Of a DNA stretch of 64,000 bases, positions 10,149 to 59,855 are shown in pieces (position 1 is the stretch's first letter; the number at the start of each line of letters is the position of its first letter). The position numbers and the translations under genes are program-made. Location of the stretch: IMG/VR virus record IMGVR_UViG_3300023117_000010, positions 28,174-92,173 of that record; one strand, written 5' to 3'. The DNA comes from a virus. The notes under the pieces are model-generated. The model was not told the origin of the DNA and did no database searches. It saw only the letters and a program-made list of their open reading frames with translations.

Positions 10149-10195
10149 TCTTATATCCAAACTGTAGTTTACAAATTTATTATATCAGATATAAT
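10149..10195 (-). promoter_or_regulatory. portal promoter region: TGATATAAT extended -10 inside palindrome ATTATATC-A-GATATAAT, plus TTGT-N14-ATATAAGA motif
   Basis: direct reading of the intergenic sequence. Confidence 0.5.
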
Positions 10196-20708: not shown

Positions 20709-20877
20709 CTGCCCAATTTAATAGTTGGGTTGGATAATCTTCTGTCCAATACTTGTTTTCTTTTTTATATTCTATTAACATATTATCATAATTTGAGTTT
20801 TTTGTTAAGTTTTTAAAAAATTTTAAAGTATTTTTATTTATTTCTTTTATCTGGCTAGAGTCATAATAATAAATCAT
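20683..20877 (-). CDS. hypothetical protein, 64 aa
   Basis: ATGA coupling to recA. Confidence 0.5.
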   Translation of the reverse strand: MIYYYDSSQIKEINKNTLKFFKNLTKNSNYDNMLIEYKKENKYWTEDYPTQLLNWADDGGQNLE

Positions 20878-26311: not shown

Positions 26312-26354
26312 TATGTCTCACTTTCTTTCGTGTTTTTGACTTGCCATAAAACAT

Positions 26355-37631: not shown

Positions 37632-38609
37632 CTAGGCAATCTCGTATGTCGTGGTAAACGAGATAAAGTCGCCAGACGCGACGGCCTTACTTGGGCTTGC
37701 ACCAAACCGACCGCCGCCATAGGCAGCAAACGGTGCAGAGTCATAGCCGAAAGCGATTGAGGTTGCAGTTGGCAGCGTTTCTACATTGAGTTGCCAGCGG
37801 AGCGTTCCGTCCCAGTAAACGGCGTTGCCAATCACGGTGTAGTCGCCAGCGGCTTCTGCCGAGTAGGGGAGGTTGCGAATCTCTATCTGCTGCCCAGCAA
37901 CTCCTGCCTGAGTCGCGCTGACCTTCGCCTGCACGATTGCAGTGTCACCGATGCGGGTGTAGCGGGCGTGAGGGGTGGTGCTGGTCAGGTTGCCGTTTTG
38001 GTACAACTGCGGCGTCCACGTTGACCAGCCGCCAAGAGAGTTGGTCTGCACCCACGCGCTTGAGTCGTAAGTCAACTCGCGGTCGTTGTCAGTCTGGTAA
38101 ATCTTCTGCCCCTCAAACGGACTCGCGGGCCGCGTGGAGGAAGTGCAGATGATGGTGCTTGTGGTGACGGCGGGCCACTGGGTTGCTTGGACGATCTTGC
38201 TGACGCGGATAAAACCGGGACCGCCGTTTGTCGTGGGGGCGGTGTCAAACTGGAATGTTCCAGAACTAGCGTTGACAAGTGCGCTCCACTGGAAAGTGTG
38301 CGAACCGGCTGGTGGTGTGAGGCGAACCTTCGCGTAGAACGGCGTTGTGTCGTTGACCTGCACACCGACACGCTGCTGAAATGAGCCGTCAACGTAAAGG
38401 GACGACACCAAGTAGTAGTTACCGATAACGGAATAAGGGCAGAACATTTCTACAATGATTGGCGAGCCATCGCACACCGCCGTTACGGAACCGCCCACGT
38501 TCTGACCAGTTGTTGACGTAACGACAACCGCGCTTGTCAGGTCAAGATGGGCCAACTCCACCAGCCCGCCGCTCGCCGTCACTACCTGTGTGTCTGTGAG
38601 TGAGGTCAT
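37632..38609 (-). CDS. minor tail / receptor-binding protein
   Basis: CTSSTRPASPFEGQKIYQTD linker, WSTWTP...ARYTRIG tail-fibre-type domain. Confidence 0.7.
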   Translation of the reverse strand: MTSLTDTQVVTASGGLVELAHLDLTSAVVVTSTTGQNVGGSVTAVCDGSPIIVEMFCPYSVIGNYYLVSSLYVDGSFQQRVGVQVNDTTPFYAKVRLTPPAGSHTFQWSALVNASSGTFQFDTAPTTNGGPGFIRVSKIVQATQWPAVTTSTIICTSSTRPASPFEGQKIYQTDNDRELTYDSSAWVQTNSLGGWSTWTPQLYQNGNLTSTTPHARYTRIGDTAIVQAKVSATQAGVAGQQIEIRNLPYSAEAAGDYTVIGNAVYWDGTLRWQLNVETLPTATSIAFGYDSAPFAAYGGGRFGASPSKAVASGDFISFTTTYEIA

Positions 38610-39637
38610 GCGGACACCGCCTTGACGTATGCGTTTCCAAAGGTGTTGAGGTACGCAGTATTCGGATAACTCAACTGAACGTAGAAGCGATACGACTTGC
38701 TTGCGTACAGGTACGCGGTCATTGGGTTCGGAGTGCTAAACCGCGTGTGGTAGTAGTAGCCGTTGAAGTCTTGGCAGTAGTTCAACTGGATGTACTGAGA
38801 ACCGTCAGTTGCTCCAAAGTGAATGTAGATGCCAATGCCGGTGTTCAGTTCAATCATCCCCGACCTTTGAGAAATCTCGTACCATCCGTCCCACGGCGGA
38901 GTAAAGGTCAGACTGTTGTAGTCACCACCTGTCTGCTGGACGATGCTGGATGTGGTCAAGGTCATTCTGTTAGAGCCGGATGACCATCGGCAAAGAGTCG
39001 CCTGTCCAAGCGGTAGCCACTTGGTGCCGTCGTACTGCATTGGAAGCACCGCGCCAATGTTCCCCGCAGCAGAGTGCCTGTAGTGAACAACGTCGCCGTT
39101 TTCTGGATTCGAAGGCAACTGCGTCACAATAGGCGGGGTCCAGAAGGGCTTGAGGCCGTCGTTCTGCTGGACGATCTTGCTGACGCGGAGAAACTGCGGA
39201 GGGTATGGCGAACCTGCTCCAACGTATCCGTTCCTTGATGCGTTGCTGACGTAGCCGCCAACCCTAAAAGTGTGCGAACCAACAGCCGGGGTCATGCGGT
39301 ATTGCAGCGCCACAGGGACAAGATGCCCAATAGCGTTCGTGCGGTTGGCGACCCTTCCCCAACTGTCCTCTTGCACAGAACCGTCATAGACAAGAGAGAA
39401 GTTGAGTTGGTCGCCGGTTCCCGCAGCGTCCTGCGTTGCCCTAGCGATTGGCGCGTAGTATTCGACAAGAACTGGTGAGCCGTCGCAAACCAACGTCATT
39501 TCCGGCGTAAGCCAGTCGGGTGACGCAGACGATGTAGCAGTGAGGGTGACGGCGTTATCGTTCTCCGAGTACCCCAACTCCACCAGTCCACCCGGAGTGA
39601 TGGGCTGCGCCCCGCCGAACGCTGACAGGTTCGCCAT
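38606..39637 (-). CDS. minor tail / receptor-binding protein (N-domain paralogous to neighbour)
   Basis: GGLVEL, CDGSP..VE, TP..GSHTF, F.RVSKIVQ shared with 37632-38609. Confidence 0.7.
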   Translation of the reverse strand: MANLSAFGGAQPITPGGLVELGYSENDNAVTLTATSSASPDWLTPEMTLVCDGSPVLVEYYAPIARATQDAAGTGDQLNFSLVYDGSVQEDSWGRVANRTNAIGHLVPVALQYRMTPAVGSHTFRVGGYVSNASRNGYVGAGSPYPPQFLRVSKIVQQNDGLKPFWTPPIVTQLPSNPENGDVVHYRHSAAGNIGAVLPMQYDGTKWLPLGQATLCRWSSGSNRMTLTTSSIVQQTGGDYNSLTFTPPWDGWYEISQRSGMIELNTGIGIYIHFGATDGSQYIQLNYCQDFNGYYYHTRFSTPNPMTAYLYASKSYRFYVQLSYPNTAYLNTFGNAYVKAVSA

Positions 39638-43618: not shown

Positions 43619-43646
43619 CTCTTATATTAAGTCAAAGTCATACAAT

Positions 43647-43681
43647 AAAAATGAGCCTCACAATGGAGGCTCATTTCTTTT
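43647..43681. terminator. bidirectional intrinsic terminator after the lysis genes
   Basis: AAATGAGCCTC-ACAATG-GAGGCTCATTT with A/T tracts on both sides. Confidence 0.8.
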
Positions 43682-43687
43682 AATTTA

Positions 43688-44059
43688 TTACTGTTCTGGA
43701 GTAATCGGTGGACTAAGATCTGTATCTGAAACTACAGGATCGTCAACAAATACTTCCACATCATTGCCAACATCTGCGGTCAAAGATGCAGGATTTGCAT
43801 AGGCTTCAGCACTAGCAAGTTGCACCTTTGAATTAGCAAAGTATGAACGTGATGCTGCTACAATAGCCTGAGAAAGAGCAGAAACAATACCTGCGATAGT
43901 CGCTAACCAAAAACCGTACTTATCAGATACTTCTGCTGGCAAAGCGCCAGTAAGCGTTGTTAGAAAAGTTGCTACAGAAAGCAAACCAGCAGTTACTGCG
44001 GTAATAATACCAGTAATAGTTACTGGACCCCAACCAACGCTAATGTTTGGTGTGTTCAA
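43688..44059 (-). CDS. holin-like membrane protein
   Basis: two hydrophobic helices; adjacent to endolysin; AGGAGA SD with TTG start. Confidence 0.65.
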   Translation of the reverse strand: MNTPNISVGWGPVTITGIITAVTAGLLSVATFLTTLTGALPAEVSDKYGFWLATIAGIVSALSQAIVAASRSYFANSKVQLASAEAYANPASLTADVGNDVEVFVDDPVVSDTDLSPPITPEQ

Positions 44060-44073
44060 TTTAATCTCCTAAG

Positions 44074-44832
44074 TTAATTAACTTTCTTACTAAAACGACG
44101 CAATCTTCTACCTAAGCGCTTCTCTAGAGATTTTTGCGCCGCATTTCTATACTCTATCTTATTCCAAGGACCGTAATAACGCAAGTCACCTACTCGGATA
44201 AAGTATCTTTTATTTCTTCCCTCTCCACGACTGACTGGAGCGAGAGTTGTTCCACGATAAAGTGGGCTATTTTTAATTTGATTTAGTACCTTATCACGAT
44301 ATTCTTTTTTCTTCCAGCGTGCAATCTTACCATTGACTGTAAGAAGTTTTTGTTGCGCTCCTAAATCTTCTAGCCAATATTTACGACGAACTGGATTTGG
44401 AACATAATCATCTACAGCAGGAGGTACAATAATTGTTGCTCCAGCAATCGGTCTACGACCTGTTGCTACCATATTATTTTTATTACCTTCTATTGTTGAT
44501 ACTGTTCCGTCGCTGTTGTGAGCAGTGATAATAGCAACGTGAGTACCACAATTTACCCACAAAGATCCGGGCGGGATCTTCCCTTTTCCATTCCACTTAT
44601 ATTTTTTACCTTTTTGGCAAATAACAGCAGTAGAAGGGTGATTGATTCCTGCATCATCAACTCCTGCTTCTGAAAACATTGCGTCTGAAAACATTCCGCA
44701 CCAAGGTTCGCCTTTCATGCCCCATCTGGCTTCCCAGCGGTCAATATCTTTTCCACGGTTTGAGCCATAGGGTACTTCTCTGACTCCTAAATATTGAAAT
44801 GCTTTTTTTACTACTTTTTCACCTTTTGTCAT
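44074..44832 (-). CDS. endolysin, CHAP/NlpC-P60-type N-terminal domain with basic C-terminal domain
   Basis: YLGVRE...GSN, PWCGMF, HVAII, TIEGN. Confidence 0.85.
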   Translation of the reverse strand: MTKGEKVVKKAFQYLGVREVPYGSNRGKDIDRWEARWGMKGEPWCGMFSDAMFSEAGVDDAGINHPSTAVICQKGKKYKWNGKGKIPPGSLWVNCGTHVAIITAHNSDGTVSTIEGNKNNMVATGRRPIAGATIIVPPAVDDYVPNPVRRKYWLEDLGAQQKLLTVNGKIARWKKKEYRDKVLNQIKNSPLYRGTTLAPVSRGEGRNKRYFIRVGDLRYYGPWNKIEYRNAAQKSLEKRLGRRLRRFSKKVN

Positions 44833-44841
44833 TTTACACCT

Positions 44842-45198
44842 TTATGGAATCATATAGCCTAGTACTAGTCCTAAGACAGCACCTACTAATGGACCTATCA
44901 TAGCAGCAATAATTGCAACTGTCAAGGTTCTTCTATAATTTCTATCTTCTGTTGTTTCTGTTTTTTCTTCAAACATTTTCTTTTCAGTTTGATTTAGTTG
45001 ATACTTAAGTTGATCAATCTGTAATGCTTGAATTTCATTTTTTATACTTTCGATTTGTTCCCCCAACCCTGAAAACTTTTCATCTAGTGCTATTGTCAAA
45101 CTATCAAACGCATCTCTGCTTTCCTGTCTAAAATCTTCAAATTCTCTATAGTTAACATAAGAAGGTTGACCATTCATTTCGGGAAAACTGCTTGACAT
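44842..45198 (-). CDS. coiled-coil protein with C-terminal transmembrane helix (lysis-associated)
   Basis: heptads then TLTVAIIAAMIGPLVGAVLGLVLG. Confidence 0.6.
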   Translation of the reverse strand: MSSSFPEMNGQPSYVNYREFEDFRQESRDAFDSLTIALDEKFSGLGEQIESIKNEIQALQIDQLKYQLNQTEKKMFEEKTETTEDRNYRRTLTVAIIAAMIGPLVGAVLGLVLGYMIP

Positions 45199-45200
45199 TT

Positions 45201-47183
45201 TTAAATCCTTTTCCATTTATTTTTAATTGACGATCTTCTTTCCCCCTCTTCAAAATTAGGTGGAGCAGGAGATTGTCCTTGCGGCATAGGAGGAAACTCA
45301 GAATTTTGATTTTCTAACTCTAACGGATTACCTGCTTGAGAAACATCTTGTTGAACAACTTGATAGTTTGGAGCATCTGGTTCAAAACTGTAAGTTTGAT
45401 TAGGATCAAACTCTGCTCCAAAATACCCTACTGGTAAGGATCTTGACTCCCAAAACATTGCCATAACGTGAGAACATGGCCGACCTTCAAATTTCTTATA
45501 TTTTCTTGTTCTTCCGTATGCATACTGACCCCATTTACACTCACAGTTCCAATGCGTAATTCTTTGACTGCTAGGGTCTTCTCTATATATTATGCATTCG
45601 TAAATACCATTATCACCCTGTACTACTCCTTCAACTGCATTTTCAGCATTGGTGTTTATTACTACTTGACCGCCATCTTTTAGACGTTTTGCTTTCATTT
45701 CAACGTCGCGCCAAGCGGCTTCTCTTCTAATTTGCTTTGATATTTCAAGAATTGCTGACTCTACATTTGATGAACTTTTATAGAAGTTATTAATAAATGA
45801 AGACAAGTTATCTTTTGTATTCATTTCAGGATTGTCAACAACAATATCCATCAAAGATTTCAGTATTTCTCCCACTTGAGGGCCACTATCAATGCCTAAA
45901 AGTTGCATAACTTCGTTGCCATTAATTGCTAAATCTTTGGGAGTAAAAGCATTTTGTGCTTCATATTCAGCATCAATTAATTGCCTCATTAAATCAGACA
46001 TTTCTCTTGTAGCACTATCATTGCCTTTACCTAAATAATCTGACTCTTTAAGATCAAGTAAATTATGAGCAATTTCGTAAGAACCGGCTTGATTAAGAAA
46101 CTTTCTTGCTCCCTTTGATGAATTAAAAATGGGGAACATATGATTTTGAATTAATTGTTTAATTCTTGCTATTCTGTTTGCAGGATATCTTAATCTTCTT
46201 AAAATATCTTCAGCCATTTGTGCGCCAACAGTTTCATGGTCTTGTCCTTGACCAGAATCATTTTTATAATAGTGACCATTTCCCTCTTCGTCGTACCAAA
46301 CAGAATCTGGTTTGCCAATATCGTGAAACAAAGCCGCGAGTCTCATATCTGTATCATCAGATCTGCGAGCCATATTTTTGACAACTTCCATCAGGTGAGT
46401 CCCTAGATCATAATTATGATGTTTGTTTTTTTGATCGTAACCAAATGTTGTATGAACTTCTGGCAAGAAGTGTTCTAATACTCCGGTTTGTTGACCAATT
46501 TGTATTGCTTGATGAGGATGTTCTCCGCTGAGTATTTTATCTAATTCCATGCCCATAATCTCTGGAGCGATTTTAGCCAAGTACGGGCCATATTTACGCA
46601 TTTGTTCTTTAGTTTTTTCATCTGGTTGTAAACCGTGCTTGCTTATTGCAGTTAATGCTCTAAGCGTTCTTGAAGGATCATCTCTAAAAGAGTTTTCATT
46701 GATAACTCTTAACAATCCCTTTTCAATATCATCAATTCCATTTAAAGGATCTACAATCTCTCCGGTTTGAGCGTTTACGGCAATTGCGTTTGCAGTAAAA
46801 TCTCTTCTTTCTAAATCTCTTTCAATTCGAATAGACGGATCACTTTTAAATTCCCAATCTTTACTTTCTTCTCCAACCTTAGTTTCTATTCTTGGTAAAG
46901 CAATTTCTACTTCTTCGTTTTGATATCTAAACCTATATACTGGAAACTGTTTTCCAGTTTTATTTAATGTTGCATTTGGGAAATTACTTAATACAGACTT
47001 AATTGTATCTTCGTCTACTCTTGCTACCAAATCTATGTCTTTTGGTTTCTTTTGAAGAAGAACATCTCTAACCGCTCCACCAACTACATAAACTTCTCCA
47101 AATGGAGATAATAGTTCAACAACTGTTTTTGCCGCAGGATTATTTCTTACTAATCTTAGTATATATTCACTTAGATTATCCAT
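45201..47183 (-). CDS. cca: class II tRNA nucleotidyltransferase (CCA-adding) + HD domain, fused to a C-terminal SWIM-type zinc domain
   Basis: VVGGAVRD, DID, RRDFTANA, DP..G..D, DDPSR.LR, H...FHDIGK; then CECKW...PCSH. Confidence 0.9.
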   Translation of the reverse strand: MDNLSEYILRLVRNNPAAKTVVELLSPFGEVYVVGGAVRDVLLQKKPKDIDLVARVDEDTIKSVLSNFPNATLNKTGKQFPVYRFRYQNEEVEIALPRIETKVGEESKDWEFKSDPSIRIERDLERRDFTANAIAVNAQTGEIVDPLNGIDDIEKGLLRVINENSFRDDPSRTLRALTAISKHGLQPDEKTKEQMRKYGPYLAKIAPEIMGMELDKILSGEHPHQAIQIGQQTGVLEHFLPEVHTTFGYDQKNKHHNYDLGTHLMEVVKNMARRSDDTDMRLAALFHDIGKPDSVWYDEEGNGHYYKNDSGQGQDHETVGAQMAEDILRRLRYPANRIARIKQLIQNHMFPIFNSSKGARKFLNQAGSYEIAHNLLDLKESDYLGKGNDSATREMSDLMRQLIDAEYEAQNAFTPKDLAINGNEVMQLLGIDSGPQVGEILKSLMDIVVDNPEMNTKDNLSSFINNFYKSSSNVESAILEISKQIRREAAWRDVEMKAKRLKDGGQVVINTNAENAVEGVVQGDNGIYECIIYREDPSSQRITHWNCECKWGQYAYGRTRKYKKFEGRPCSHVMAMFWESRSLPVGYFGAEFDPNQTYSFEPDAPNYQVVQQDVSQAGNPLELENQNSEFPPMPQGQSPAPPNFEEGERRSSIKNKWKRI

Positions 47184-50100
47184 TTAAATTCCTCTTCGCC
47201 TACTTGTATCTGGGGCAAATCCTTCAGAACCCCAACTATCTTCTCCCTTATAAGGTTCTGTAGTCGCTAATAAACCTTCTTGTACCCTTTCCCATCTTTC
47301 GAATTCTTCTGTGCTAGGTTCTGGCGGCATCATATAAAAGTTTATTTGCCCACCAGCAATTCCTCCTGCTCCAGCGTCTGGATTTTCATTCATATAAATA
47401 GTATTTTTTGCATATTCTAATAAATTAATTAATTCATTCATGCTTCTTTCCAAAAATCTAGAATTATATGATCCAAGTTGAAATCTGTCATTGAACATTT
47501 TATTTATTGGATTTACAATTGCATTTAATCCTGTTTCTTTAGCAATGTAGTATACAATATCTCTTAGTTCTCTAAGTTTTGTTTCATACAGACCAGAATC
47601 ATCAACTTCTTTTCGCAGAAGGTCTTGTTGTATCAATTTTCTTTCTTTATCCGAATCACTATCTCCCGGCTGAATTTGTTTTTCTTCAAGTTCTAAAGGA
47701 GGTCCAGTTAATGTATTTTCATTTTGATTAAACCAAATTGTTCTTTGAATAGGAGAGTTTAAATTTCTTTCAAAAAAATTTCTCGTCAATTCTTTTATTT
47801 CTTCAGACAAATTAATTGCATATTGAACATAATTTATTAAATATGTTCTTGATTGATTAATTTCTTCTTTAGGCATTGATTTTGGCTCTATTTGAAATTC
47901 AACGTAAGAATTTTCAAAGTCGTAATTATAGTTCCAACTTCCATATTCACTTTCTAGACTTTTAGAAATTTCTGAATCATCAAACAAATGGTATATATCA
48001 TTTACCGAAGTTGTATAATCAACACTTGAAATTAAATCTTTTAAAACTATTCTAATTCCATTTAAAATTGCAATTTTGTTTTTTTTGTTTTCTTTGTAAA
48101 ACATAGATGTTTGTTTTTGTACATAAAAATCAAAAGCATTTACATAGGTATTAATAATTTTTTCAATTTGTCCTGTAGAAATAGAGGTTAAAATAATATA
48201 TGTTCCAAGTCCTTTTACTGATTCATAAAAATCCCATATTTCATCTGAAATATTATTTTCTTCATCAAAAAGCAAATTTTCGTATTTTTCTACAATAGAA
48301 TTTATAAAATTAAAAACATTTGAATATGACCCGTCAAAAGTATATGGCTCTACTATTCTAACGAGAGCATATCCATAGTCATCTCTTTCTAGTTCCTCTA
48401 CCGGGGTGTCTTCATCTGGATAATAATAATTCATCATATCAAACAAATAAGCGCTCTCGCCATAGTCACCTTCTACCCATTGCCAGAGCGTTTCTAATTC
48501 ATCACCACTAGATATTTCGGGTATATTTGAAAGTCCCCAAAAAACATCTGGTTCCATATGATATTCAGTTGTTTCTATATCTTCTTCTGCAACGGGCAAA
48601 TCGCTCTCATAATAAAGACCACTTCTTTGTCCTTCTGGTTTATCAAACCAATCGTGACCAGCACCATATGCCGCAACTGCTTTGAGTCCTTTTATTTCTT
48701 CTTCATAAGCCCATCGGGGGTAATCAAATGGAAGTGGTATGCTTTTTATTGCCTCTTTGTGTTGTTCGACTGCATCTTCTGTGCTTGATGCGTTATAAAC
48801 ATACTCTTTACCATTTCTTGTTCTGACTATATATTTATTTGGATTTTTGCTTTGTCTTTGAAAACTTTCTTGTCCGAAGAAAGCATTTAAAATCTTTTGT
48901 TCATTTTGTCTTACGGCATGATCCTGACGACCAAACGCTTGTCCCAGAATCACCCCTTCTTTATCTAATTCCAAAGTTGTCCAAGGAACTCCATCCGGGT
49001 CGCGCACAGAATAAACAGTATTAAGATCTTCATCCCTTCTTCTAATATGAGGCTGTTCCCAACTTCCAATACAGTGGTTACATATCCTTCCTTCTAATTC
49101 TAAATCGTCTGTACTTTCAAGTCGGTATACTCCCCAAACTCCCGGTTTTGCTTTTTCGGGATTACCTTTTTTAACTTCAAAAGTAAAAACAGGACTATCT
49201 GATTCGTATGCGACTTCTCCTTCTTTAAATTGTCTTAATAATTCTTTATATTCTTCTCTTTCTTTTGTTTCTGTTTCTATCTGACGAAGAGAAAGGCTTA
49301 GTTCATTAAAACTATCCATTCCTTCTAAATTTGTAGGAAATCTTAAGTCTTTATATTCATTTAAGAGATATTGAAGCCTTATACTGTTCATATATTGAAT
49401 TGCATTTACGGCACCTTCAAATATAGTATTTCTAGCCGGATAGTTAGACCTGTTTTGTACATAGAAATCTAAAACTTCTTCTGGACGCATTTTAAATATT
49501 GATCCGTCTAAAATCATATCTAATATATTTTCAAAATTTTCTACATAGTTTCCATATCTATCGGTTAATAGCATAGAAACTTTATTTAAGGTAGTCAAAA
49601 ACCCAAAATCTAAATGATTATCTTTTTTCATTTCTTTAATTTTTTGATTAAAAAGATTTTCAATTTTTTGCAATTTATTGTTTAATTGATTATTGTCTGA
49701 GTTTTGTAAACTAAACCACCAGCGCCAACTAAAATCTATTTCTTCATCTAAAGAAATATCTGTGTAAAGTAAGCGATCTATTGTCCCAATAAACTCTGAT
49801 TCGGCGCTCCAGTCATATGATTCGCCAAGAAACTCATAGTTTTCACTATTAATAAAATCTCCAACTTTTGTATTTTTACCAAAGTTTCCCGTCCAAAGTT
49901 TTCTAAAATCTTCTTTATAAGATTGTAAATAATCTTTATCTCTATATAAAGGATCAGTTGGTCCACTAAAAAGATACATTCTATATGCATTATTATTGAT
50001 CATCACATCATTTCTTTGTACTGCTTTTTTGTACAAAGAAATAATTCCTCCCCAAAATTTAATGCTTTCTTCCGTTAAAACGCCCATATCAACAATAGAT

Positions 50101-51146
50101 TGTAAACGCTCTTTCCAAACGGGGTATCTTTTATTCCATTTTGATTCTTCACTGATCTGCTTATCAAGGATTTTTTGAGCGATTTGCTTTATCTTGGATT
50201 CTTCACCCTCGTTGCTATTTTTATTAAAACTGAATTTAAAATCTTCACTATCGGTTTTATTTATATTATTATAATATTGAGCAACTGCTTTTAGGTCTTT
50301 TTTGCCAAAGGTGCAGTCGCAAGGATACCCTTTAGAGTTTAGATGTGTTTTTTGACGAAAAGATCTATTATAAAAAGTAGATTCATAATAATAATTTACA
50401 AAATCGTCTTTTGTAAATGCTTCTTTTTGAAAAGCAATTCTTTGTCCAACATTTTTTAGGCGATCAAATGTTCCGTTATTATCTAAAAATTTATAAATAA
50501 CATTACCTTCGCTGTAATCGCCATAGTCAATCTGATCTTCTTTTCTTTTTTGATGCACTTTTTTATACATTGCCTTAGCATCTTCATATTTATGATTATC
50601 AATCAAAGTATTAATTTTGTCAGATACCTGAACCCCCATTAGAATCCAATCAGGCTTTTCTTTTTTAATATCTGTAGTTGGTCTTTTTGGTTTAAGAACC
50701 CATTCGTTTTTTTGAAAATCCCACGCGCTTCTAAGACCGAGAATAAAAAGGTCTTCAATGTCTACACCAATTGGTTGAACAAAATGTTGATATTGGTGTT
50801 TAGTTCTAGGAAAGAAGGTGCCGTCTAAAGATTCAATCACAATAGCAATAAGATCTGCACGATCTTCTTCATCAAACTCGTCGGCGTTACAAACAATAGA
50901 AATGTCTACATCTGATTTTTCCGAATATTGATATGTACAAAGAGAACCTGTTAAATAGAAATCAAAAGCATATGGGTTAAAGTTGTTTTGTCTAAAAACT
51001 TCTCTAACGTGATCTAAGTGATATTCAAAAAAAGCACTTTTGGGAGTCATCCCGTTAAATACATCTTGATCTAAAGTATCGTGAATCGGATCTAGAATGT
51101 TAGACTTTTTATGGATTAAATTCTCTTCCACTTCAATACCTTCCAA
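47184..51146 (-). CDS. giant multidomain protein: N-terminal Pol-beta-type nucleotidyltransferase + central PcfJ-like domain (probable GTG start at 51131)
   Basis: LTGS...Y...SDVDI; YS.GN..YK.L; L..EG....HCIG...YSVRD..G.P..TLE..Q.FG. Confidence 0.7.
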   Translation of the reverse strand: MEGIEVEENLIHKKSNILDPIHDTLDQDVFNGMTPKSAFFEYHLDHVREVFRQNNFNPYAFDFYLTGSLCTYQYSEKSDVDISIVCNADEFDEEDRADLIAIVIESLDGTFFPRTKHQYQHFVQPIGVDIEDLFILGLRSAWDFQKNEWVLKPKRPTTDIKKEKPDWILMGVQVSDKINTLIDNHKYEDAKAMYKKVHQKRKEDQIDYGDYSEGNVIYKFLDNNGTFDRLKNVGQRIAFQKEAFTKDDFVNYYYESTFYNRSFRQKTHLNSKGYPCDCTFGKKDLKAVAQYYNNINKTDSEDFKFSFNKNSNEGEESKIKQIAQKILDKQISEESKWNKRYPVWKERLQSIVDMGVLTEESIKFWGGIISLYKKAVQRNDVMINNNAYRMYLFSGPTDPLYRDKDYLQSYKEDFRKLWTGNFGKNTKVGDFINSENYEFLGESYDWSAESEFIGTIDRLLYTDISLDEEIDFSWRWWFSLQNSDNNQLNNKLQKIENLFNQKIKEMKKDNHLDFGFLTTLNKVSMLLTDRYGNYVENFENILDMILDGSIFKMRPEEVLDFYVQNRSNYPARNTIFEGAVNAIQYMNSIRLQYLLNEYKDLRFPTNLEGMDSFNELSLSLRQIETETKEREEYKELLRQFKEGEVAYESDSPVFTFEVKKGNPEKAKPGVWGVYRLESTDDLELEGRICNHCIGSWEQPHIRRRDEDLNTVYSVRDPDGVPWTTLELDKEGVILGQAFGRQDHAVRQNEQKILNAFFGQESFQRQSKNPNKYIVRTRNGKEYVYNASSTEDAVEQHKEAIKSIPLPFDYPRWAYEEEIKGLKAVAAYGAGHDWFDKPEGQRSGLYYESDLPVAEEDIETTEYHMEPDVFWGLSNIPEISSGDELETLWQWVEGDYGESAYLFDMMNYYYPDEDTPVEELERDDYGYALVRIVEPYTFDGSYSNVFNFINSIVEKYENLLFDEENNISDEIWDFYESVKGLGTYIILTSISTGQIEKIINTYVNAFDFYVQKQTSMFYKENKKNKIAILNGIRIVLKDLISSVDYTTSVNDIYHLFDDSEISKSLESEYGSWNYNYDFENSYVEFQIEPKSMPKEEINQSRTYLINYVQYAINLSEEIKELTRNFFERNLNSPIQRTIWFNQNENTLTGPPLELEEKQIQPGDSDSDKERKLIQQDLLRKEVDDSGLYETKLRELRDIVYYIAKETGLNAIVNPINKMFNDRFQLGSYNSRFLERSMNELINLLEYAKNTIYMNENPDAGAGGIAGGQINFYMMPPEPSTEEFERWERVQEGLLATTEPYKGEDSWGSEGFAPDTSRRRGI

Positions 51147-52687
51147 CTTGATTCTTTTGTATTGTTAATCCAATGTTCGTAAATTTCTTGCCAGTTCACT
51201 TTGGACTCATCTAGCCAATGATTTGCTATATCTGTCGGTTCAGGAATTCCCATTAGGCCATAAACAATCTCTCGCATTTTTCTAATATAATCTTCTTGAG
51301 CCTCTGGATCGTCTGGATATCTTCTTTCAGCATCGCTTCGCCATTTTTGATCATCATTTTCTAATTGCATTAAAATTTCTTCTTCATCGGTATATTCAGC
51401 AAAATCGTTTCTAAGTTGTTCATTATATGGACCAATTACTCTTTCGATTGCTGCCATAGCAAAGTCATCAACAGAAATATTTTTCTTTGCTAACTCCGTG
51501 AAATACAAATAGTCATCATAATCGTTTTCCATCATAAGATTAACGTTCCAAGTTTCCCAGTTTGTCCAGCCATTATGATCTGAGATTTTATTCCATTTAG
51601 ACCCTTTCCACCAACTTTCGGGTTCCCACTTATCTAGAATTTGATTTTTTCTTTGTAAAGAATAAACTTCATCGTAACCTAATTCTTCGTTTACTTTTTC
51701 AAACCAATGACCTAAAATTTCATCAAAGTCTACTTTCAGAATATCATCAATTCGTTCTGTTTCGTCACAGGTTCTGTTATGTACATCAATAACCATTTCT
51801 TCAATTTTTTCACGCCAAACTTCTTTTAATTCAAAAAAAGTTTCACTTGGGTATTTACTAATGGCTTTTTTTGCTAAATCTAAAAAATATTTATATATAT
51901 TAAATTCGTTTTCCATAATGTTATTTGTCAAAAACGTTTCCCAGTTTGTCCAGCCTCCATAGTCAGAAACTTTTTCCCATTTAGAAAACAAATTAAATGA
52001 ATTGCCAAATTCTCTTAATAGTAAAGATCGAACTTCATTCCAGTTTATCATTCCCTCATCTATGATATATTCCGCAGGATCAAATGGAACTCCATCCATT
52101 TCCCATTTATCCATCATTGCTTGAGTTAAAGAATTAGCAAGTTGTTGATCGCCTCTTGATATATTATTTGCAAAATATTCTACATAAGCAAAAACTTCTT
52201 CTTCTGATAAGGCTCTCCATTGCTTTGCGTTTCTAGGAAGGTTGTCAGGGAATTGCTTAAAAGTGTTTTGATTAAACTTCTTTATAAAAGGAATAAAGTA
52301 TCTTCTTACATCATCGGGAGTAGGATTTGCTTCAAAAAGTTTATCTAGATTTAACATACTATCTTGACCATGTTCAGCAATTAAAAACTGGGCGACCAAC
52401 TTTTCTTCTTGACTTGAGGCAAGTCTAACGTTTGAAACTTTATTTAAACTCACTACCTCTACTCTTTCTCTAACAATCTCTTTATCTGGTTCAGACGCTT
52501 TCCATAGACGAACAAAATAATCTAAATTTATTGGAACTTTAACATCTTCTTTATATAAAGAAATAGATTTATCAGCAGGAAGATAGTCTCCTGTGATATA
52601 ATTATCTTCTAGGGGTTCTTCAAAATCAAAATTATTTACAAAGTGAATTTGATCTTGATCTATATTCCAAATAAATCTATATTGCAT
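51116..52687 (-). CDS. acidic multi-module protein with two tandem GWTNWET domains
   Basis: SKWEKVSDYGGWTNWETF and SKWNKISDHNGWTNWETW; exact 20-bp DNA repeat at 51552-51571 and 51936-51955. Confidence 0.7.
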   Translation of the reverse strand: MQYRFIWNIDQDQIHFVNNFDFEEPLEDNYITGDYLPADKSISLYKEDVKVPINLDYFVRLWKASEPDKEIVRERVEVVSLNKVSNVRLASSQEEKLVAQFLIAEHGQDSMLNLDKLFEANPTPDDVRRYFIPFIKKFNQNTFKQFPDNLPRNAKQWRALSEEEVFAYVEYFANNISRGDQQLANSLTQAMMDKWEMDGVPFDPAEYIIDEGMINWNEVRSLLLREFGNSFNLFSKWEKVSDYGGWTNWETFLTNNIMENEFNIYKYFLDLAKKAISKYPSETFFELKEVWREKIEEMVIDVHNRTCDETERIDDILKVDFDEILGHWFEKVNEELGYDEVYSLQRKNQILDKWEPESWWKGSKWNKISDHNGWTNWETWNVNLMMENDYDDYLYFTELAKKNISVDDFAMAAIERVIGPYNEQLRNDFAEYTDEEEILMQLENDDQKWRSDAERRYPDDPEAQEDYIRKMREIVYGLMGIPEPTDIANHWLDESKVNWQEIYEHWINNTKESSWKVLKWKRI

Positions 52688-52764
52688 AATTATTCTCTTT
52701 AGATATCTATATCTTAAGGCTTAGAATAACAACCTTATTTAGTGAAAAAGGGGTCATTACTTAA

Positions 52765-55099: not shown

Positions 55100-55101
55100 G
55101 T

Positions 55102-55173
55102 TCGGGAGTAGTTCAGTGGTAGAACAGTCGGCTGTTAACCGATATGTCGCAGGTTCGAATCCTGCCTCCCGAG
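55102..55173 (+). tRNA. tRNA-Asn(GTT)
   Basis: cloverleaf TCGGGAG/CTCCCGA, loop CTGTTAA, TTCGAAT; no CCA. Confidence 0.95.
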
Positions 55174-55176
55174 TAT

Positions 55177-55247
55177 GCGGCTATAGTTTAGGGGTAAAAC
55201 GTTGGCCTTCCAAGCCATATTCGTCGGTTCGATTCCGACTAGCCGCT
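55177..55247 (+). tRNA. tRNA-Gly(TCC)
   Basis: GCGGCTA/TAGCCGC, loop CTTCCAA, U73; no CCA. Confidence 0.93.
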
Positions 55248-55254
55248 TGCAGTA

Positions 55255-55263
55255 TGATATAAT
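55255..55263 (+). promoter_or_regulatory. extended -10 TGATATAAT
   Basis: recurrent 9-mer upstream of an ORF. Confidence 0.55.
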
Positions 55264-55287
55264 GTAAAAAACAGATTGGAGTATGAT

Positions 55288-55467
55288 ATGGTTAATGAGC
55301 GTAAGAAGAACACAGATCCTCGCAAGGGGACTCCCGAAGTACTTCATCCAAATAAGTCAGAGCAGGATCGCATGCCTTCGGCAGAGCGTCCTCGCGTTAA
55401 GAAAGCCCAACAGTGGGCAGATCAGATGCAAAAGGATAGACCAAGCGGTATAGGATTAACAGGTTAA
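55288..55467 (+). CDS. hypothetical basic protein (MVNERKK...)
   Basis: GGAG SD. Confidence 0.55.
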   Translation: MVNERKKNTDPRKGTPEVLHPNKSEQDRMPSAERPRVKKAQQWADQMQKDRPSGIGLTG

Positions 55468-55474
55468 TAATCCT

Positions 55475-55547
<73 letters not shown>

Positions 55548-55550
55548 TTT

Positions 55551-55624
55551 GGGCGAGTAACTCAGTTGGTCAGAGTGCCTGCTTTACACGCAGGAAGTCG
55601 GGGGTTCAAGTCCCTCCTTGCCCA
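55551..55624 (+). tRNA. tRNA-Val(TAC)
   Basis: GGGCGAG/CTTGCCC, loop TTTACAC; no CCA. Confidence 0.95.
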
Positions 55625-55627
55625 TGA

Positions 55628-55709
55628 GGGGAAGTGGTGAAATTGGCAGACACGACGGACTCAAAATCCGTTGCCGCAAGGCGTGGGGGTTCAAGTCCCT
55701 CCTTCCCTA
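55628..55709 (+). tRNA. tRNA-Leu(CAA)
   Basis: long variable arm, loop CTCAAAA; no CCA. Confidence 0.95.
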
Positions 55710-55710
55710 C

Positions 55711-55782
55711 TGGCCCATCGTTCAACGGTTAGGACGCGACTCTTATAAAGTCGTAATCTGGGTTCGATTCCCAGTGGGCCGA
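55711..55782 (+). tRNA. tRNA-Ile(TAT)
   Basis: TGGCCCA/TGGGCCG, CGACT-CTTATAA-AGTCG, TTCGATT, A73; no CCA. Confidence 0.88.
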
Positions 55783-55823
55783 TGAAAAGAACTAATATGA
55801 GCATACATGACAAAAAGAAATAA

Positions 55824-55906
55824 GGGGGCGTGGCGGAATTGGCATACGCAGAGGACTTAAAATCCTTAACCTGTAAGGTTTGTGGGTTCGACTCCCACCG
55901 CCCCTA
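55824..55906 (+). tRNA. tRNA-Leu(TAA)
   Basis: long variable arm, loop CTTAAAA; no CCA. Confidence 0.95.
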
Positions 55907-55966
55907 CTAAAAAAATAGTGCATAATTATTTTCTATTACGGAAACTAATAACAAAGGATTGCGACT

Positions 55967-56173
55967 ATGGTTGAAGAAGAAACAATGACTAATGATATAG
56001 ATTATAGACCAATGGATGATCCGTTTGATGAGTTCCAAAGGGCTAAATCTGACTACATTCATATAAGTAAAACTTATAAAAATTATTTTTCTGCTGAATC
56101 ATACCTAGAAGCAGAAGAAAAAGCATGGATAAGATTACAAAATGCTTTAAAAGATCCAAACTTAGAACTATAA
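55967..56173 (+). CDS. hypothetical protein, 68 aa
   Basis: AAGGA SD. Confidence 0.55.
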   Translation: MVEEETMTNDIDYRPMDDPFDEFQRAKSDYIHISKTYKNYFSAESYLEAEEKAWIRLQNALKDPNLEL

Positions 56174-56188
56174 AAACTATTTTGGTTT

Positions 56189-56197
56189 TGATATAAT
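56189..56197 (+). promoter_or_regulatory. extended -10 TGATATAAT upstream of tRNA-Glu
   Basis: recurrent 9-mer. Confidence 0.6.
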
Positions 56198-56208
56198 CAA
56201 ACTTATAG

Positions 56209-56281
56209 GGCGCATTCGTCTAGTGGTCTAGGACTCGGGACTTTCATTCCCGCAACAGGGGTTCGAACCCCCTATGCGCTA
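56209..56281 (+). tRNA. tRNA-Glu(TTC)
   Basis: GGCGCAT/ATGCGCT, loop CTTTCAT; no CCA. Confidence 0.93.
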
Positions 56282-56306
56282 TCACTATTTAAAAATAGGA
56301 GGAATA

Positions 56307-56474
56307 ATGGCAAGAGCAAAGCATCGGTGGCGTAGACAACGTGATCAAATGTGGGCGTTAATAAATAAAGTTGAACGTCAACGAAAGCATCAAGAAATGC
56401 TAGAAGAGCATAAAAATATTAAAAAGGCTGGGTTGCGACCCACTAAACAAGAAGAAGTACAAGTTACTGAATAA
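56307..56474 (+). CDS. small basic protein (MARAKHRW...)
   Basis: AGGAGG SD. Confidence 0.6.
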   Translation: MARAKHRWRRQRDQMWALINKVERQRKHQEMLEEHKNIKKAGLRPTKQEEVQVTE

Positions 56475-56481
56475 GTTTTAC

Positions 56482-56552
56482 TCCGGGATCGTCTAATGGT
56501 AGGACAGAAGGCTTTGGACCTTCTAATCTAGGTTCGAATCCTAGTCCCGGAT
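56482..56552 (+). tRNA. tRNA-Gln(TTG)
   Basis: TCCGGGA/TCCCGGA, loop CTTTGGA; no CCA. Confidence 0.93.
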
Positions 56553-56598
56553 TTTATTTATCTTTTATTACTAAGCATAAGTAATAGAGGATAATATT

Positions 56599-56823
56599 AT
56601 GAATATCTATATACTTTCTTGGGTGCTTGCAGTACTCAGTTTAATTGGAATGTGGAATGTAGGGAAATACCGACTTTGGGCTTGGATTTATTTAGGTTGC
56701 CTAGAAATCCTTTGGACTTTTTATGGTATAATGACTAAACAATACGGATTTATCTTACTCACCGTTGGATACATAACGATTTATGTGATAAACTATAAAA
56801 GATGGAAACAGAAAGAAAACTAA
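56599..56823 (+). CDS. small PnuC-like membrane protein
   Basis: three short TM helices, SW..A..S..G.W..G...W.W pattern, ends Y..W. Confidence 0.6.
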   Translation: MNIYILSWVLAVLSLIGMWNVGKYRLWAWIYLGCLEILWTFYGIMTKQYGFILLTVGYITIYVINYKRWKQKEN

Positions 56824-56910
56824 TTGAATTGGCAGTGGTATGACTGGTTTTTCTTTGTAGTCCTTGTTATAATATTCTTATGGTTTTTATATTGGGGACT
56901 TAAAGATTAA
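56824..56910 (+). CDS. putative 28-aa aromatic membrane peptide MNWQWYDWFFFVVLVIIFLWFLYWGLKD
   Basis: TTG directly after upstream stop; single TM; read by hand. Confidence 0.4.
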   Translation: MNWQWYDWFFFVVLVIIFLWFLYWGLKD

Positions 56911-56915
56911 TATAT

Positions 56916-56987
56916 GGCTCTATGGCGTAATGGCAGCGTAGGGGACTTTTAATCCTTCAGGTCTAGGTTCGAATCCTAGTGGGGCCA
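56916..56987 (+). tRNA. tRNA-Lys(TTT)
   Basis: GGCTCTA/TGGGGCC, loop CTTTTAA; no CCA. Confidence 0.92.
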
Positions 56988-56989
56988 CT

Positions 56990-57174: not shown

Positions 57175-57702
57175 TTGAATACAGCCACTGACAGCCGTAA
57201 TGTTATTGATTACTATAAGTATTGGAATGAGGATGCTATTAAGGCATCTTTAGATAAGGTGAGGTTTCCGTTTGTTGTTGCAATCGAAAACTTTGACAAG
57301 GATTTTAATATTTCCACTACCATTCGTAATTGTAATGCTTTTACTGGAAAAGAAGTATGGATTCTTGGGCGTCGAAGGTGGGACCGTCGCGGTGCTGTCG
57401 GTACTCATCACTATGAGCATCTTAAGTTTGGTGCATCTCTACAGAATACGGTAGATGCTCATCCTGACTATCGTGTGGTAGTATTTGAAAACTACAATAA
57501 TGCACAGGATATCCGTGAGTATGATTGGAACGAAAAGACTATTATGGTTTTTGGGCAGGAAAGCATTGGAGTTACCGACAAGGCTATGGATCTTGCTGAC
57601 GACGTTGTTTATATTCCTCAGTTTGGATCTACCCGCTCTCTTAATGTTGGAGTGGCTAGCGGTATCGCAATGTATTCTTATATTCAGCAGTTTGGAGGTT
57701 GA
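57175..57702 (+). CDS. SPOUT (TrmH/SpoU-family) RNA 2'-O-methyltransferase
   Basis: EN...DFN..T.IR, VFGQE..GV, VYIPQFG..RSLNV.VA.GI. Confidence 0.88.
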   Translation: MNTATDSRNVIDYYKYWNEDAIKASLDKVRFPFVVAIENFDKDFNISTTIRNCNAFTGKEVWILGRRRWDRRGAVGTHHYEHLKFGASLQNTVDAHPDYRVVVFENYNNAQDIREYDWNEKTIMVFGQESIGVTDKAMDLADDVVYIPQFGSTRSLNVGVASGIAMYSYIQQFGG

Positions 57703-58387: not shown

Positions 58388-59482
58388 ATGTATGACTATC
58401 TAGTGGTTGGAGCAGGATTATTTGGAGCAACGTTTGCTCGCATCATGACCGATTCTGGAAAAAGTTGTTTAGTAATTGATAAGCGAGAGCATATTGGCGG
58501 CAACGTATATACAGAAAAGCATGAGGGCATTCATGTTCATAAATATGGTCCTCATATTTTTCATACATCAAATCAAGATATTTGGGATTTTGTAAATAAA
58601 TATGCAGAGTTTAATAATTATACTCATAGGGTTAAGGCATTCTATAAAAGAAAATTTTATACTTTACCTTTCAATTTAAAAACATTTAATGAAATTGCTA
58701 ATGCTTCTAGTATTAAACAATTGCAAGGTTGGATTGAACAATGGAACGAACTACCAAACAAACAATCTAATTTAGAAACTTGGGCAATATCACAAGTAGG
58801 TCCAGAAGTTTATAAAACGCTTATTAAAGGCTATACAGAGAAGCAGTGGGGCAAACCTCCGTCAGAGTTGCCAGCAGATATTATTAAACGTCTTCCTATT
58901 CGTATGACTTTTGATGATAACTATTTTAATGATACTTATCAGGGTATCCCAGTAAACGGATATACAGATATGATATCTAATATTCTTAAAGATATTCCAT
59001 ATCTAACAAATATGCCATATGCTCATCATCTTAAAGAATTGGCTCATAAAGTCGTTTACACAGGACCAATTGATGAGTTTTTTGATTATGAACTGGGTAA
59101 ACTTGAATATCGTTCATTAGATCTTGTAAATGAAGTTTATGAGTCTGAATATTATCAAGGTTGTGCCCAAATAAATTATACAGAAAAGTTTATTCCTCAT
59201 ACGAGAATTGTTGAGCATAAGCATTTCTACCCCGGACTAAAAACAGACAAAACAATCATTACTAGAGAATTTCCTACAAAGTTTGGCGAACCTTATTACC
59301 CAATAAACGATAAGAAAAACAACGATCTATATAATGAATATAGAAAAATGGCTAAGGTAAAAGCACCAAAAGTTATTTTTGGAGGTAGGCTTGGCAACTA
59401 TAAATACTATGATATGCATCAAGTTATTGGACAAGCAATGAAATATGCTAAACTAGAAAAAGAAGAAAAAACGAACAATTAA
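58388..59482 (+). CDS. glf: UDP-galactopyranose mutase
   Basis: VVGAGLFG, HIGGN, HKYGPHIFHT, YTEKQWG, YQGIP, LEYRSL, EPYYP, GRLG.YKYYDM. Confidence 0.95.
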   Translation: MYDYLVVGAGLFGATFARIMTDSGKSCLVIDKREHIGGNVYTEKHEGIHVHKYGPHIFHTSNQDIWDFVNKYAEFNNYTHRVKAFYKRKFYTLPFNLKTFNEIANASSIKQLQGWIEQWNELPNKQSNLETWAISQVGPEVYKTLIKGYTEKQWGKPPSELPADIIKRLPIRMTFDDNYFNDTYQGIPVNGYTDMISNILKDIPYLTNMPYAHHLKELAHKVVYTGPIDEFFDYELGKLEYRSLDLVNEVYESEYYQGCAQINYTEKFIPHTRIVEHKHFYPGLKTDKTIITREFPTKFGEPYYPINDKKNNDLYNEYRKMAKVKAPKVIFGGRLGNYKYYDMHQVIGQAMKYAKLEKEEKTNN

Positions 59483-59782: not shown

Positions 59783-59855
59783 CGCGGGGTGGAGAAGTGG
59801 TTATCTCGTCGGCTTCATGCGTCGAAGATCGAAGGTTCGAATCCTTCCCCCGCTA
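59783..59855 (+). tRNA. initiator-type tRNA-Met(CAT) with atypical anticodon arm
   Basis: CGCGGGG/CCCCGCT with C1:U72 mismatch; TCGGC-TTCATGC-GTCGA; no CCA. Confidence 0.88.

Follow-up and report, generated by a model that had tools for sequence, protein, structure and literature searches.

Polyvalent proteins of phages and conjugative elements, which have been proposed to enter the host together with the DNA, are encoded with virion genes and unite disparate enzyme domains in one polypeptide, among them Pol-beta nucleotidyltransferases (NTases), GNAT, ADP-ribosyltransferase (ART) and other nucleotide- or RNA-acting domains (Iyer et al. 2017, PMC5512222). The locus described here, from the IMG/VR virus record IMGVR_UViG_3300023117_000010, resembles them in several respects. 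Its central gene encodes P0001, a CCA-adding tRNA nucleotidyltransferase with an HD domain (CCA/HD enzyme) that is fused to a C-terminal SWIM-type zinc module with a disordered linker and a short basic tail; beside it lie the genes of a second NTase (P0002) and of a repeat protein (P0003). The window, i.e. the whole stretch analysed, comprises 64,000 nucleotides, bases 28174-92173 of this linear 92-kb record, which was judged 57% complete. With a probability of about one in three, SWIM module, linker and basic tail form a previously undescribed carrier for capsid loading and ejection, which would deliver a tRNA-end repair enzyme here and other enzymes elsewhere. That a SWIM-carried enzyme is packaged in the virion at all is plausible, if still short of an even chance.

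Like polyvalent proteins, P0001 (NTase, HD, SWIM) and P0002 (NTase, PcfJ-like) combine disparate domains, and the domains fused to the SWIM module in other proteins overlap with their repertoire. A setting among virion genes is seen in relatives, whose block adjoins either the portal or the protease and capsid genes, whereas in the window it stands with a lysis cassette. Differences exist as well: PMC5512222 names no CCA enzyme, PcfJ or SWIM-based carrier, and no zincin-type processing peptidase was found here. Moreover, the conserved unit here is a small C-terminal module of SWIM domain, linker and tail, present in single copy and in one lineage.

In the MuF polymorphic toxins of temperate phages, described by Jamet and co-workers in 2017, a conserved protein of the head module, whose gene adjoins that of the portal, reportedly serves as a platform for variable effectors. 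The comparison is an analogy only, because no MuF match was obtained here with Pfam or PHROGs and the order is the reverse of MuF, with the conserved module at the C-terminus and the payload at the N-terminus; payloads here also include RNA-repair enzymes rather than toxins. Short C-terminal peptides target proteins to capsids in the tail of the HK97 prohead protease and in the cargo-loading peptides of encapsulins. The tails described below are similar in that otherwise unrelated proteins share a short, conserved C-terminal peptide borne on a flexible linker.

With the multifunctional bacterial CCA/HD enzyme and the CCA enzymes of jumbo phages (PMC7824862) P0001 shares the class II head, neck and body, the HD domain and the expected activities, CCA addition and healing of 2',3'-cyclic phosphate ends. 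It differs by the fusion to SWIM (in relatives CCA is found in 560-2157-aa proteins or fused to the NTase), and its gene is tied to head-region genes, not to tRNA genes. Minimal MNT-type NTases (MntA of HEPN-MNT modules, HI0073; PMC7641770) share the GS...DxD motif and are the nearest structures to the NTase core of P0002, which differs by an extra helical domain, the lack of a HEPN partner gene and its constant pairing with a CCA enzyme. The locus may best be seen as a variation on the polyvalent or effector-carrier theme, resting on a lineage-specific SWIM-tail module to which a CCA enzyme and an uncharacterised NTase are closely tied.

The CCA/HD enzyme and the SWIM module

Four domains of P0001 exceed their Pfam cut-offs: a PolyA_pol head (residues 31-159; PF01743, 96.5 bits, cut-off 23), an RNA-binding domain (184-244), an HD domain (262-360; PF01966, 38.6 bits) and tRNA_NucTran2_2; the RNA-binding neck and body score 44.8 bits (PF12627) and 35.2 bits (PF13735). 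The head contains the motifs VVGGAVRDVLL...KDIDLV, and the catalytic GGxVRD and DxD residues are invariant among 12 homologues; motif B can be read as ERRDFTANAIA and the nucleotide-selecting (E/D)DxxR motif as DDPSRTLRAL. Residues H263, H287-D288, H316 and H348 of the HD domain are likewise invariant, and the HDIG model TIGR00277 matches too. P0001 further matches PHROG 2244 at 1e-71, and among PDB sequences it comes closest to 3wfo, an entry titled 'Poly A polymerase' (tRNA processing enzyme). The best NCBIfam model is that of the actinobacterial CCA enzyme (TIGR02692), matched over the full length with 205.8 bits, below the equivalog cut-off of 438.8. PADLOC gave only cross-matches of HD to Cas3-HD. 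Judged by its sequence, P0001 is a class II CCA-adding/HD tRNA nucleotidyltransferase of the actinobacterial type, which from what is known of the family should add or rebuild CCA and heal 3' ends.

An earlier note on this DNA had read P0001 as a CCA-HD enzyme joined to a SWIM-type zinc domain, and besides the Pfam domains both the zinc ligands and a structural model bear this out. The ligands follow the pattern CxCx20CxH (C547-x-C549-x20-C570-x-H572) and are invariant in 100 aligned family members, although the Pfam SWIM profile scores 18.6 bits, slightly below its cut-off of 19.6; 37 of 73 relatives match the profile. An AlphaFold (AF2) model of the C-terminal 190 residues, built on 100 sequences, predicts two helices, a three-stranded sheet and zinc-knuckle helices (core pLDDT above 90), followed by about 70 disordered residues, the Pro/Gln-rich linker that precedes the tail. 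The sole meaningful PDB match of this model is the SWIM region of ZSWIM8 (9rwz; probability 1.0, rmsd 2.9-3.8 A).

The family of this module comprises 834 clusters in a full search of 1.8 billion representatives, with proteins of 137-1772 aa in which the module can stand at any position. Scanning 73 members with Pfam revealed GNAT, YunG, Macro, CCA-HD, NUDIX, ADP-ribosyltransferase, Fic, Acb1, LigT and PcfJ as partner domains. Among isolate phages the module is confined to 223-224 records which also hold a related portal, and each of five relatives, three of them complete, has one SWIM domain per genome. The portal of the virus studied here (8025-10145, minus strand) is 41% identical to those of myoviruses of 135-165 kb, namely Cluster C mycobacteriophages, Gordonia phages and Rhodococcus phage E3. 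The SWIM module is a single-copy hallmark of a Cluster C mycobacteriophage-like lineage. At the DNA level the region has no match among isolate phages (megablast), P0002 and P0003 have essentially none in tblastn against these phages, and an IMG/VR pattern scan with the whole of P0001 gave just two remote matches to its HD region. The window sequence itself recurs almost verbatim in many salt-marsh metagenomes.

Mycobacteriophages Astraea and Caravan and phage E3 carry the module inside a LysM protein of 603-1285 aa, in the gene order portal, LigT-type 'RNA ligase', SWIM/LysM protein, prohead protease, scaffold-like protein, capsid. The SWIM module of these 'LysM domain proteins' (Astraea gp94, Caravan gp91, Bxz1 gp94, E3 gp76) is 36-40% identical to that of P0001, and the 2H/LigT gene directly upstream takes the place of CCA enzyme and NTase. 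In contrast to P0001 they have LysM, no CCA domain and no basic tail, and they end with ...LxLxGTHY, a sequence found here on P0004. The module is opened by an AAWxDV helix in P0001 as well as in Caravan gp91 (QIREAAWKDVRAKAMRL) and E3 gp76, and K.AAW.D[IV]..KA is present in many of 149 family representatives.

A segment of P0004 (S.xEQxALIxE..ARNMDxLxLxGTHY, in P0004 itself with the ending ...LNLEGTHY; 31415-31900) is homologous to the C-terminal end of the Cluster C/E3 SWIM-LysM protein (E 2e-5 to 5e-5). A single protein of the mycobacteriophages is therefore divided over P0001 and P0004 here, and over two genes in environmental relatives. A direct BLASTP comparison of P0001 and P0004 gave no significant similarity, the AAW[RK]DV and YSFEP matches being short.

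The conserved block and the origin of the fusion

The CCA-HD-SWIM architecture was found in 11 metagenomic proteins, 55-81% identical to P0001 and ending in SKWKRI or close variants. Gene order is preserved on the nearest IMG/VR contigs (L010-L012), where separate genes encode an NTase of 230 aa, a CCA-HD protein of 636 aa and a SWIM protein of 185 aa which ends in TKWKRI; the start codon of the SWIM gene overlaps the stop codon of the CCA gene. A search of relatives for a standalone SWIM protein, suggested in the earlier note, thus gave a positive answer: the module is standalone, conserved and single-copy there, and the CCA enzyme was recently fused to it. The sequences indicate that the fusion arose in this sub-lineage by loss of the stop between the adjacent CCA and SWIM genes. 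The CCA-HD protein of these closest relatives (L010 8037-9947) has another C-terminal domain, of about 170 aa and without family, in the place of SWIM.

Thirty-six IMG/VR loci with the SWIM module were fetched. About 23 of them have, at 0.3-9 kb upstream of the SWIM gene and in the same orientation, a gene for an NTase of the P0002 type, and in 17 of these about 23 loci a CCA-HD enzyme flanks the SWIM gene (16 upstream, one downstream). The CCA domain of relatives is often the C-terminal part of open reading frames (ORFs) of 560-2157 aa; two loci have it fused to the NTase (X-CCA-NTase), and another variant is a giant protein of 2157 aa with CCA at its end. In environmental relatives the block follows the portal at a distance of 9-16 kb or precedes protease and capsid by 9-12 kb, with a P0004-like gene between. 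In the loci of 16 relatives the block has no tRNA gene closer than 10 kb, and in two complete relatives about 46 tRNAs and a tmRNA are 20-67 kb away from it. Judging from these comparisons, CCA enzyme, MNT-like NTase and SWIM gene are a conserved block across a Cluster C-like myovirus lineage, located ancestrally in the head-morphogenesis region.

The second enzyme of the block, P0002, lies on an ORF of 1320 aa (47184-51146, minus strand). Its start was placed at GTG 51131, preceded by a GGAAGG ribosome-binding site; the homologue in relative L009, known from a single metagenome scan, begins MLSKTS..., and the atlas record begins at residue 6. Its N-terminal module, called Pol-beta-type already in the earlier note, contains TGSLCTYQYSEKSDVDISIV, with G62, S63, D74, D76 and D127 invariant in 24 sequences, and is a separate gene of 230-253 aa in relatives. 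Sequence searches gave no match to Pfam (PF01909) or PDB. Atlas neighbours are viral standalone NTP_transf_2 look-alikes, in whose clusters 19-28% of the members carry PF01909. The structural model (pLDDT 85) retrieves only NTases with Foldseek, MntA included, at E values of 0.02 or weaker, and VIA scores against minimal MNT-type NTases are modest (1ylq Z 7.2, 2rff Z 6.3, 1no5 Z 6.0). On its sequence motifs, the N-terminus of P0002 is a Pol-beta-type NTase, with a predicted fold that probably comes nearest to minimal MNT-type NTases.

The PcfJ label given to the same protein is kept in weaker form. The region is conserved in the L009 homologue, but it scores 23.6 bits against PF14284, below the cut-off of 25; therefore we call P0002 'PcfJ-like' only. 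A clear PcfJ domain is present in one SWIM-family member. P0002 is probably linked in function to the CCA enzyme, and nothing suggests that it is packaged.

A putative carrier and its alternatives

Because the partners of the SWIM module act on proteins, nucleotides and RNA, the module is probably not substrate-recognising but rather serves as a carrier or localisation module. It would take an N-terminally fused enzyme to one common destination, most likely the capsid interior or the packaged DNA, with the tethered C-terminal tail (KWKRI here, PGPF/AIKRR elsewhere) acting as docking peptide. Loading into the head and exit with the DNA would fit the ancestral position among head genes, the LysM domain of the Cluster C version, as expected for a protein that meets the cell wall, and the overlap of partner domains with polyvalent proteins (PMC5512222) and MuF toxins. 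The payload would be made late, together with the lysis genes, and would enter the next host along with the genome. There the CCA/HD enzyme could rebuild or heal tRNA 3' ends, plausibly against host systems which clip or extend tRNA acceptor ends (HEPN RNases, MenT/AbiE-type NTases), and later in infection it could mature the phage's own CCA-less tRNAs.

The tail on which this proposal depends ends both P0001 and P0003 as KWKRI and P0019 as KWRII; three KW[KR][RI]I tails among 85 genes have a chance probability of about 8e-14. Basic tails, defined by at least three basic residues after a hydrophobic one, occur in 64 of the 149 best SWIM-family representatives (for example PGPFIKRR, PGPAVRRR, TPFIKRR, GTAPRRRR) versus 4 of 102 ORFs here, and in the group B loci of relatives they are almost limited to the SWIM protein. 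P0003 and P0019, having the same tail, may share the destination of the SWIM module.

The shared endings could instead be a matter of DNA, the KWKRI-stop codons forming a junction cassette (ribosome-binding site plus ATTTAA spacer) for translational coupling and recombination, without any role of the peptide. The three gene ends do read A(A/G)(A/G)(A/G)G(A/G)ATTTAA with the next start directly after, and P0002, which has no KW, ends AGAGGAATTTAA-ATG. We consider this explanation very unlikely, as SKW is kept at the protein level in relatives with a moved stop (SKWKRIGNGK, SKWKKSKWKRA, SKWKRSE), no start overlaps the KWRII of P0019, the same motif occurs internally in P0003 and other sub-lineages hold a different but equivalent basic tail.

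A second type of C-terminus, acidic and then hydrophobic, was observed on prohead proteases (Caravan ...NDASLFI, E3 ...DDIYLHL, relative G006 ...PDDAIFN). It is also present on P0004 (...EDFDLFI), on P0004-like proteins (...DPYFLLGI, ...DPDFLWGM) and on a terminase-adjacent protein of 946 aa (...DEGWLL); the loci concerned are L006 15839-23565, L001 8398-12950, L013, L032 and L046 in addition to P0004. This ending may be the real prohead-targeting signal of the lineage.

The earlier note had taken P0001, P0002 and P0003 for polyproteins that are loaded into the prohead, cut by its protease at REA, KEA, KVS and KIS junctions and injected as a tRNA-end repair kit, which we now regard as improbable. 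All strings quoted in its favour are present (KSSSNVES...RREAAWRDV; SKVAAWKDV in P0004; SKWEKVS and SKWNKIS; the tails KWKRI, twice, and KWRII), and two of the proposed junctions do mark boundaries. At the position of QKEA the standalone 230-aa NTase of relatives ends with ...GQRIA, and every DUF7249 repeat of P0003 comes after an SKW.K[VI]S. In L009 the P0003 homologue, which has one repeat fewer, shows SKWSKY at the position of the KWKRI stop and reads on into an extra module of 60 residues. The embedding of CCA in the large proteins of relatives would also suit polyproteins, as would the enrichment of [KR]x[AS][AS] sites, which is strong in portal-flanking proteins (808 aa, z 4.8; 946 aa, z 3.5), present in a giant protein of 3236 aa (z 3.0) and mild in P0001 and P0003 (z 2.1-2.4).

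However, HKKS turned out to be the N-terminus of P0002, and REAAWRDV forms the helix that opens the SWIM module, conserved between mycobacteriophages and this phage, so that a cut would fall inside a domain. SKVAAWKDV of P0004, described as a near-identical junction, shows no significant likeness to SWIM (E 0.014-0.39); its AAWKDV aligns with KAFKDS and AKWQDS of relatives' P0004-like proteins and opens a different conserved domain. Searches of P0001-P0004, of the 808-, 946- and 3236-aa proteins and of the large CCA proteins of relatives yielded no peptidase family, and the prohead protease gene is absent from this contig. P0002 has neither a [KR]x[AS][AS] site (0 observed, 1.5 expected) nor a KWKRI-like tail, which contradicts its packaging as a polyprotein. 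Since the modules are separate genes in close relatives, function needs no cleavage; the proposed carrier would not require proteolytic processing, and none is indicated. What stands of the idea that these enzymes belong with head cargo is indirect comparative support, namely the ancestral head-region position and the effector-type partners, while cleavage is left without support.

Several observations weigh against a head-loaded carrier. Here, as in the closest relatives, the block is displaced from the head genes to the lysis operon, with at least 35 kb separating it from the portal and about 42 kb from protease and capsid. In Cluster C phages the genes between portal and protease also include ThyX and WhiB, which are plainly non-structural, so position alone is weak evidence. 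The KRI-stop ending is partly accounted for by the embedded ribosome-binding site of the next gene. A tail common to prohead protease and scaffold, as the analogy to capsid-targeting peptides would suggest, was looked for and rejected: in the closest relative, G006, the protease ends ...DDAIFN, the scaffold-like protein ...ELLSV and the capsid ...KIVKA, and none of the three carries the KWKRI tail. The literature searches made gave no usable report on SWIM in virions or on the virion proteomics of E3 or Cluster C phages. Finally, all 11 tRNA genes of this phage and almost all of those in relatives with about 46 tRNAs are CCA-less, which allows a simpler, ordinary cytoplasmic role for the CCA enzyme.

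Such an ordinary operon, in which the CCA/HD enzyme matures or repairs CCA-less phage tRNAs, the MNT-like NTase co-acts on RNA ends and SWIM is a non-structural binding factor (e.g. a regulator or packaging accessory) fused through adjacency, is possible, though we tend to doubt it. CCA is encoded by none of the 11 tRNA genes and is missing from the about 46 tRNAs of relatives with a CCA enzyme; the divergent neighbours are the tRNA array, a TrmH-like methylase and nucleotide-metabolism genes; the unit itself holds lysis genes and no virion genes; and phage CCA enzymes have already been seen as RNA-repair genes (PMC7824862). The non-structural genes in the Cluster C interval point the same way. 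Left unexplained are the fusion of one small module to Macro, NUDIX, ART, Fic, GNAT, Acb1, LigT and CCA, the conserved tethered tail and its presence on unrelated proteins here, and the fact that the CCA gene of relatives tracks the SWIM gene and not the tRNA arrays. Cluster C phages, moreover, manage about 30 CCA-less tRNAs without a CCA enzyme.

If the SWIM module is a virion carrier, a large actinophage-like lineage, cultured mycobacteriophages such as Bxz1 included, would possess a plug-in system for delivering enzymes with the genome. Its payloads (CCA, LigT, Macro, NUDIX, ART, Fic, GNAT, Acb1) would then be a catalogue of things that need neutralising or repair during the first minutes of infection. 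Packaging of the CCA/HD enzyme would mean that the host responds at once by damaging tRNA 3' ends and that the phage pre-empts this, and the enzyme would be the first virion-delivered tRNA repair activity. Even if nothing is packaged, the tight linkage and repeated fusion of CCA enzyme, MNT-like NTase and SWIM gene predict a joint RNA-end pathway, and the SWIM family has a conserved C-terminal putative docking peptide.

Operon, tRNA genes and other features of the window

The features of the region are listed in Table 1. On the minus strand P0003 is followed by P0002, P0001, the XhlA-like gene, the endolysin gene, the gene for the small membrane protein and the terminator. Past this terminator the strand carries a dozen genes that are unknown or fibre-like, then P0004, the replication genes and the large terminase, and finally two large acidic proteins and the portal. 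Across the 77-bp gap from P0003 a unit starts with dUTPase and the large subunit of ribonucleotide reductase and continues with ten tRNAs, the TrmH-like methylase, a deaminase, Glf and the eleventh tRNA. The placing of the CCA gene in a structural/lysis block away from the tRNAs can therefore be kept in part: it belongs to a lysis unit, but this is not a block of virion-structure genes, and the tRNA array, in the divergent neighbouring unit, is only about 8 kb off.

Table 1. Positions of genes, modules and other elements in the window (strand in the third column).
Feature	Position	Strand	Remarks
P0001, 660 aa	45201-47183	-	class II CCA/HD tRNA nucleotidyltransferase fused to SWIM fold
CCA-adding/HD phosphohydrolase part of P0001, residues 1-468	45780..47183	-	
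SWIM module of P0001, residues 470-660	45204..45776	-	two helices (with REAAWRDV), zinc finger, linker, SKWKRI tail
C-terminal KWKRI tail of P0001	45204..45218	-	codons also hold Shine-Dalgarno sequence of next gene
P0002, ~1315 aa from GTG 51131	47184..51131	-	NTase, variable region, PcfJ-like conserved region, variable C-terminus ending RRRGI
NTase module of P0002, residues 6-245	50412..51131	-	GS...DxD and invariant D127; ends at GQRIA, the 'QKEA' junction
PcfJ-like region of P0002, residues 603-752	48891..49340	-	23.6 bits (PF14284 cut-off 25); kept in L009 homologue
P0003, 523 aa	51116..52687	-	two DUF7249 repeats, each after SKW[EN]K[VI]S; C-terminal KWKRI; first gene of operon
P0004, 1022 aa	31415..34483	-	C-terminal domain 860-1022 homologous to relatives' genes between SWIM gene and prohead protease
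P0019, 291 aa	42364..43239	-	no family; ends SKSKWRII; gene missing from relative L009
XhlA-like coiled-coil protein	44842..45216	-	C-terminal membrane helix; likely true start ATG 45198
CHAP-domain endolysin	44074..44832	-	
Small membrane protein, holin-like	43688..44059	-	last gene of operon
Strong intrinsic terminator	43640..43676	-	11-bp stem and T run; closes P0003-to-holin unit
Divergent intergenic region, 77 bp	52688..52764	.	between P0003 and dUTPase/ribonucleotide reductase/tRNA unit
Array of ten tRNA genes	55101..56988	+	eleventh at 59783-59855; none encodes CCA

Four salt-marsh metatranscriptome runs contain contigs that match exactly pieces of all genes between 43.1 and 52.5 kb, and one of these contigs bridges P0001 and the next gene. 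They give no timing, strand or transcript ends and DNA carry-over is possible, but they are compatible with a single transcribed unit. The promoter presumably lies in the 77-bp region. No site of the early-promoter box CTAACA-N5-HTWAC was found near the operon or in this region, nor is the box enriched in the window, and a generic promoter scan stayed at chance level (54 sites, 51 expected). Extended -10-like elements (TGATATAAT or TGATAATAT) were noticed on the minus strand at 26312-26340, 20760-20800 and 10170-10190, where they precede an SSB-like gene, the gene 20349-20708 and the portal; upstream of P0003 only a weaker GATATAGAT is present. Possibly these elements are promoters of one class.

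Two complete relatives of 158-161 kb, G004 (L051-L052) and G001 (L062-L063), carry their about 46 tRNA genes and the tmRNA in one array. Almost none of these tRNA genes encodes CCA, and the same holds for the tRNAs examined from Caravan, a phage without CCA enzyme. A TrmH/SpoU-type 2'-O-methyltransferase (57175-57702) and a UDP-galactopyranose mutase (58388-59482) are encoded inside the tRNA block of the window. Together with the actinobacterial type of the CCA enzyme, they point to an actinobacterial host.

Atlas searches with P0003 returned the DUF7249 repeat only. This protein contains one DKWEPESWWKGS tag, which it has in common with the 3236-aa giant protein, encoded outside the window (genome 2904-12614, L007). 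In general form, [DE]KWEPxxWWKGS, the tag has five copies in the giant protein and a single one in P0003, always after a basic stretch, against a chance expectation of about 1e-9. The DKWEPxxWWKGS tag was not seen in the fetched stretches of relatives.

Directly downstream of the portal lies a gene for 432 aa (6717-8015), which is portal-adjacent also in relatives L029 and G006 and has a weak match, below the cut-off, to calcineurin-like phosphoesterases. Two neighbouring minus-strand genes at 37632-39637 have about 54% G+C compared to about 35% for the genome and match no family; this pair looks like a recently acquired cassette among the fibre-like genes. Some fibre-like proteins have a common C-terminal ...(Y/H)IIKT domain, of which the window holds two copies (35953-36831, 60724-61320), and in relatives a copy is found between the P0004-like gene and the prohead protease (L013 16776-17339; L046 8456-9184).

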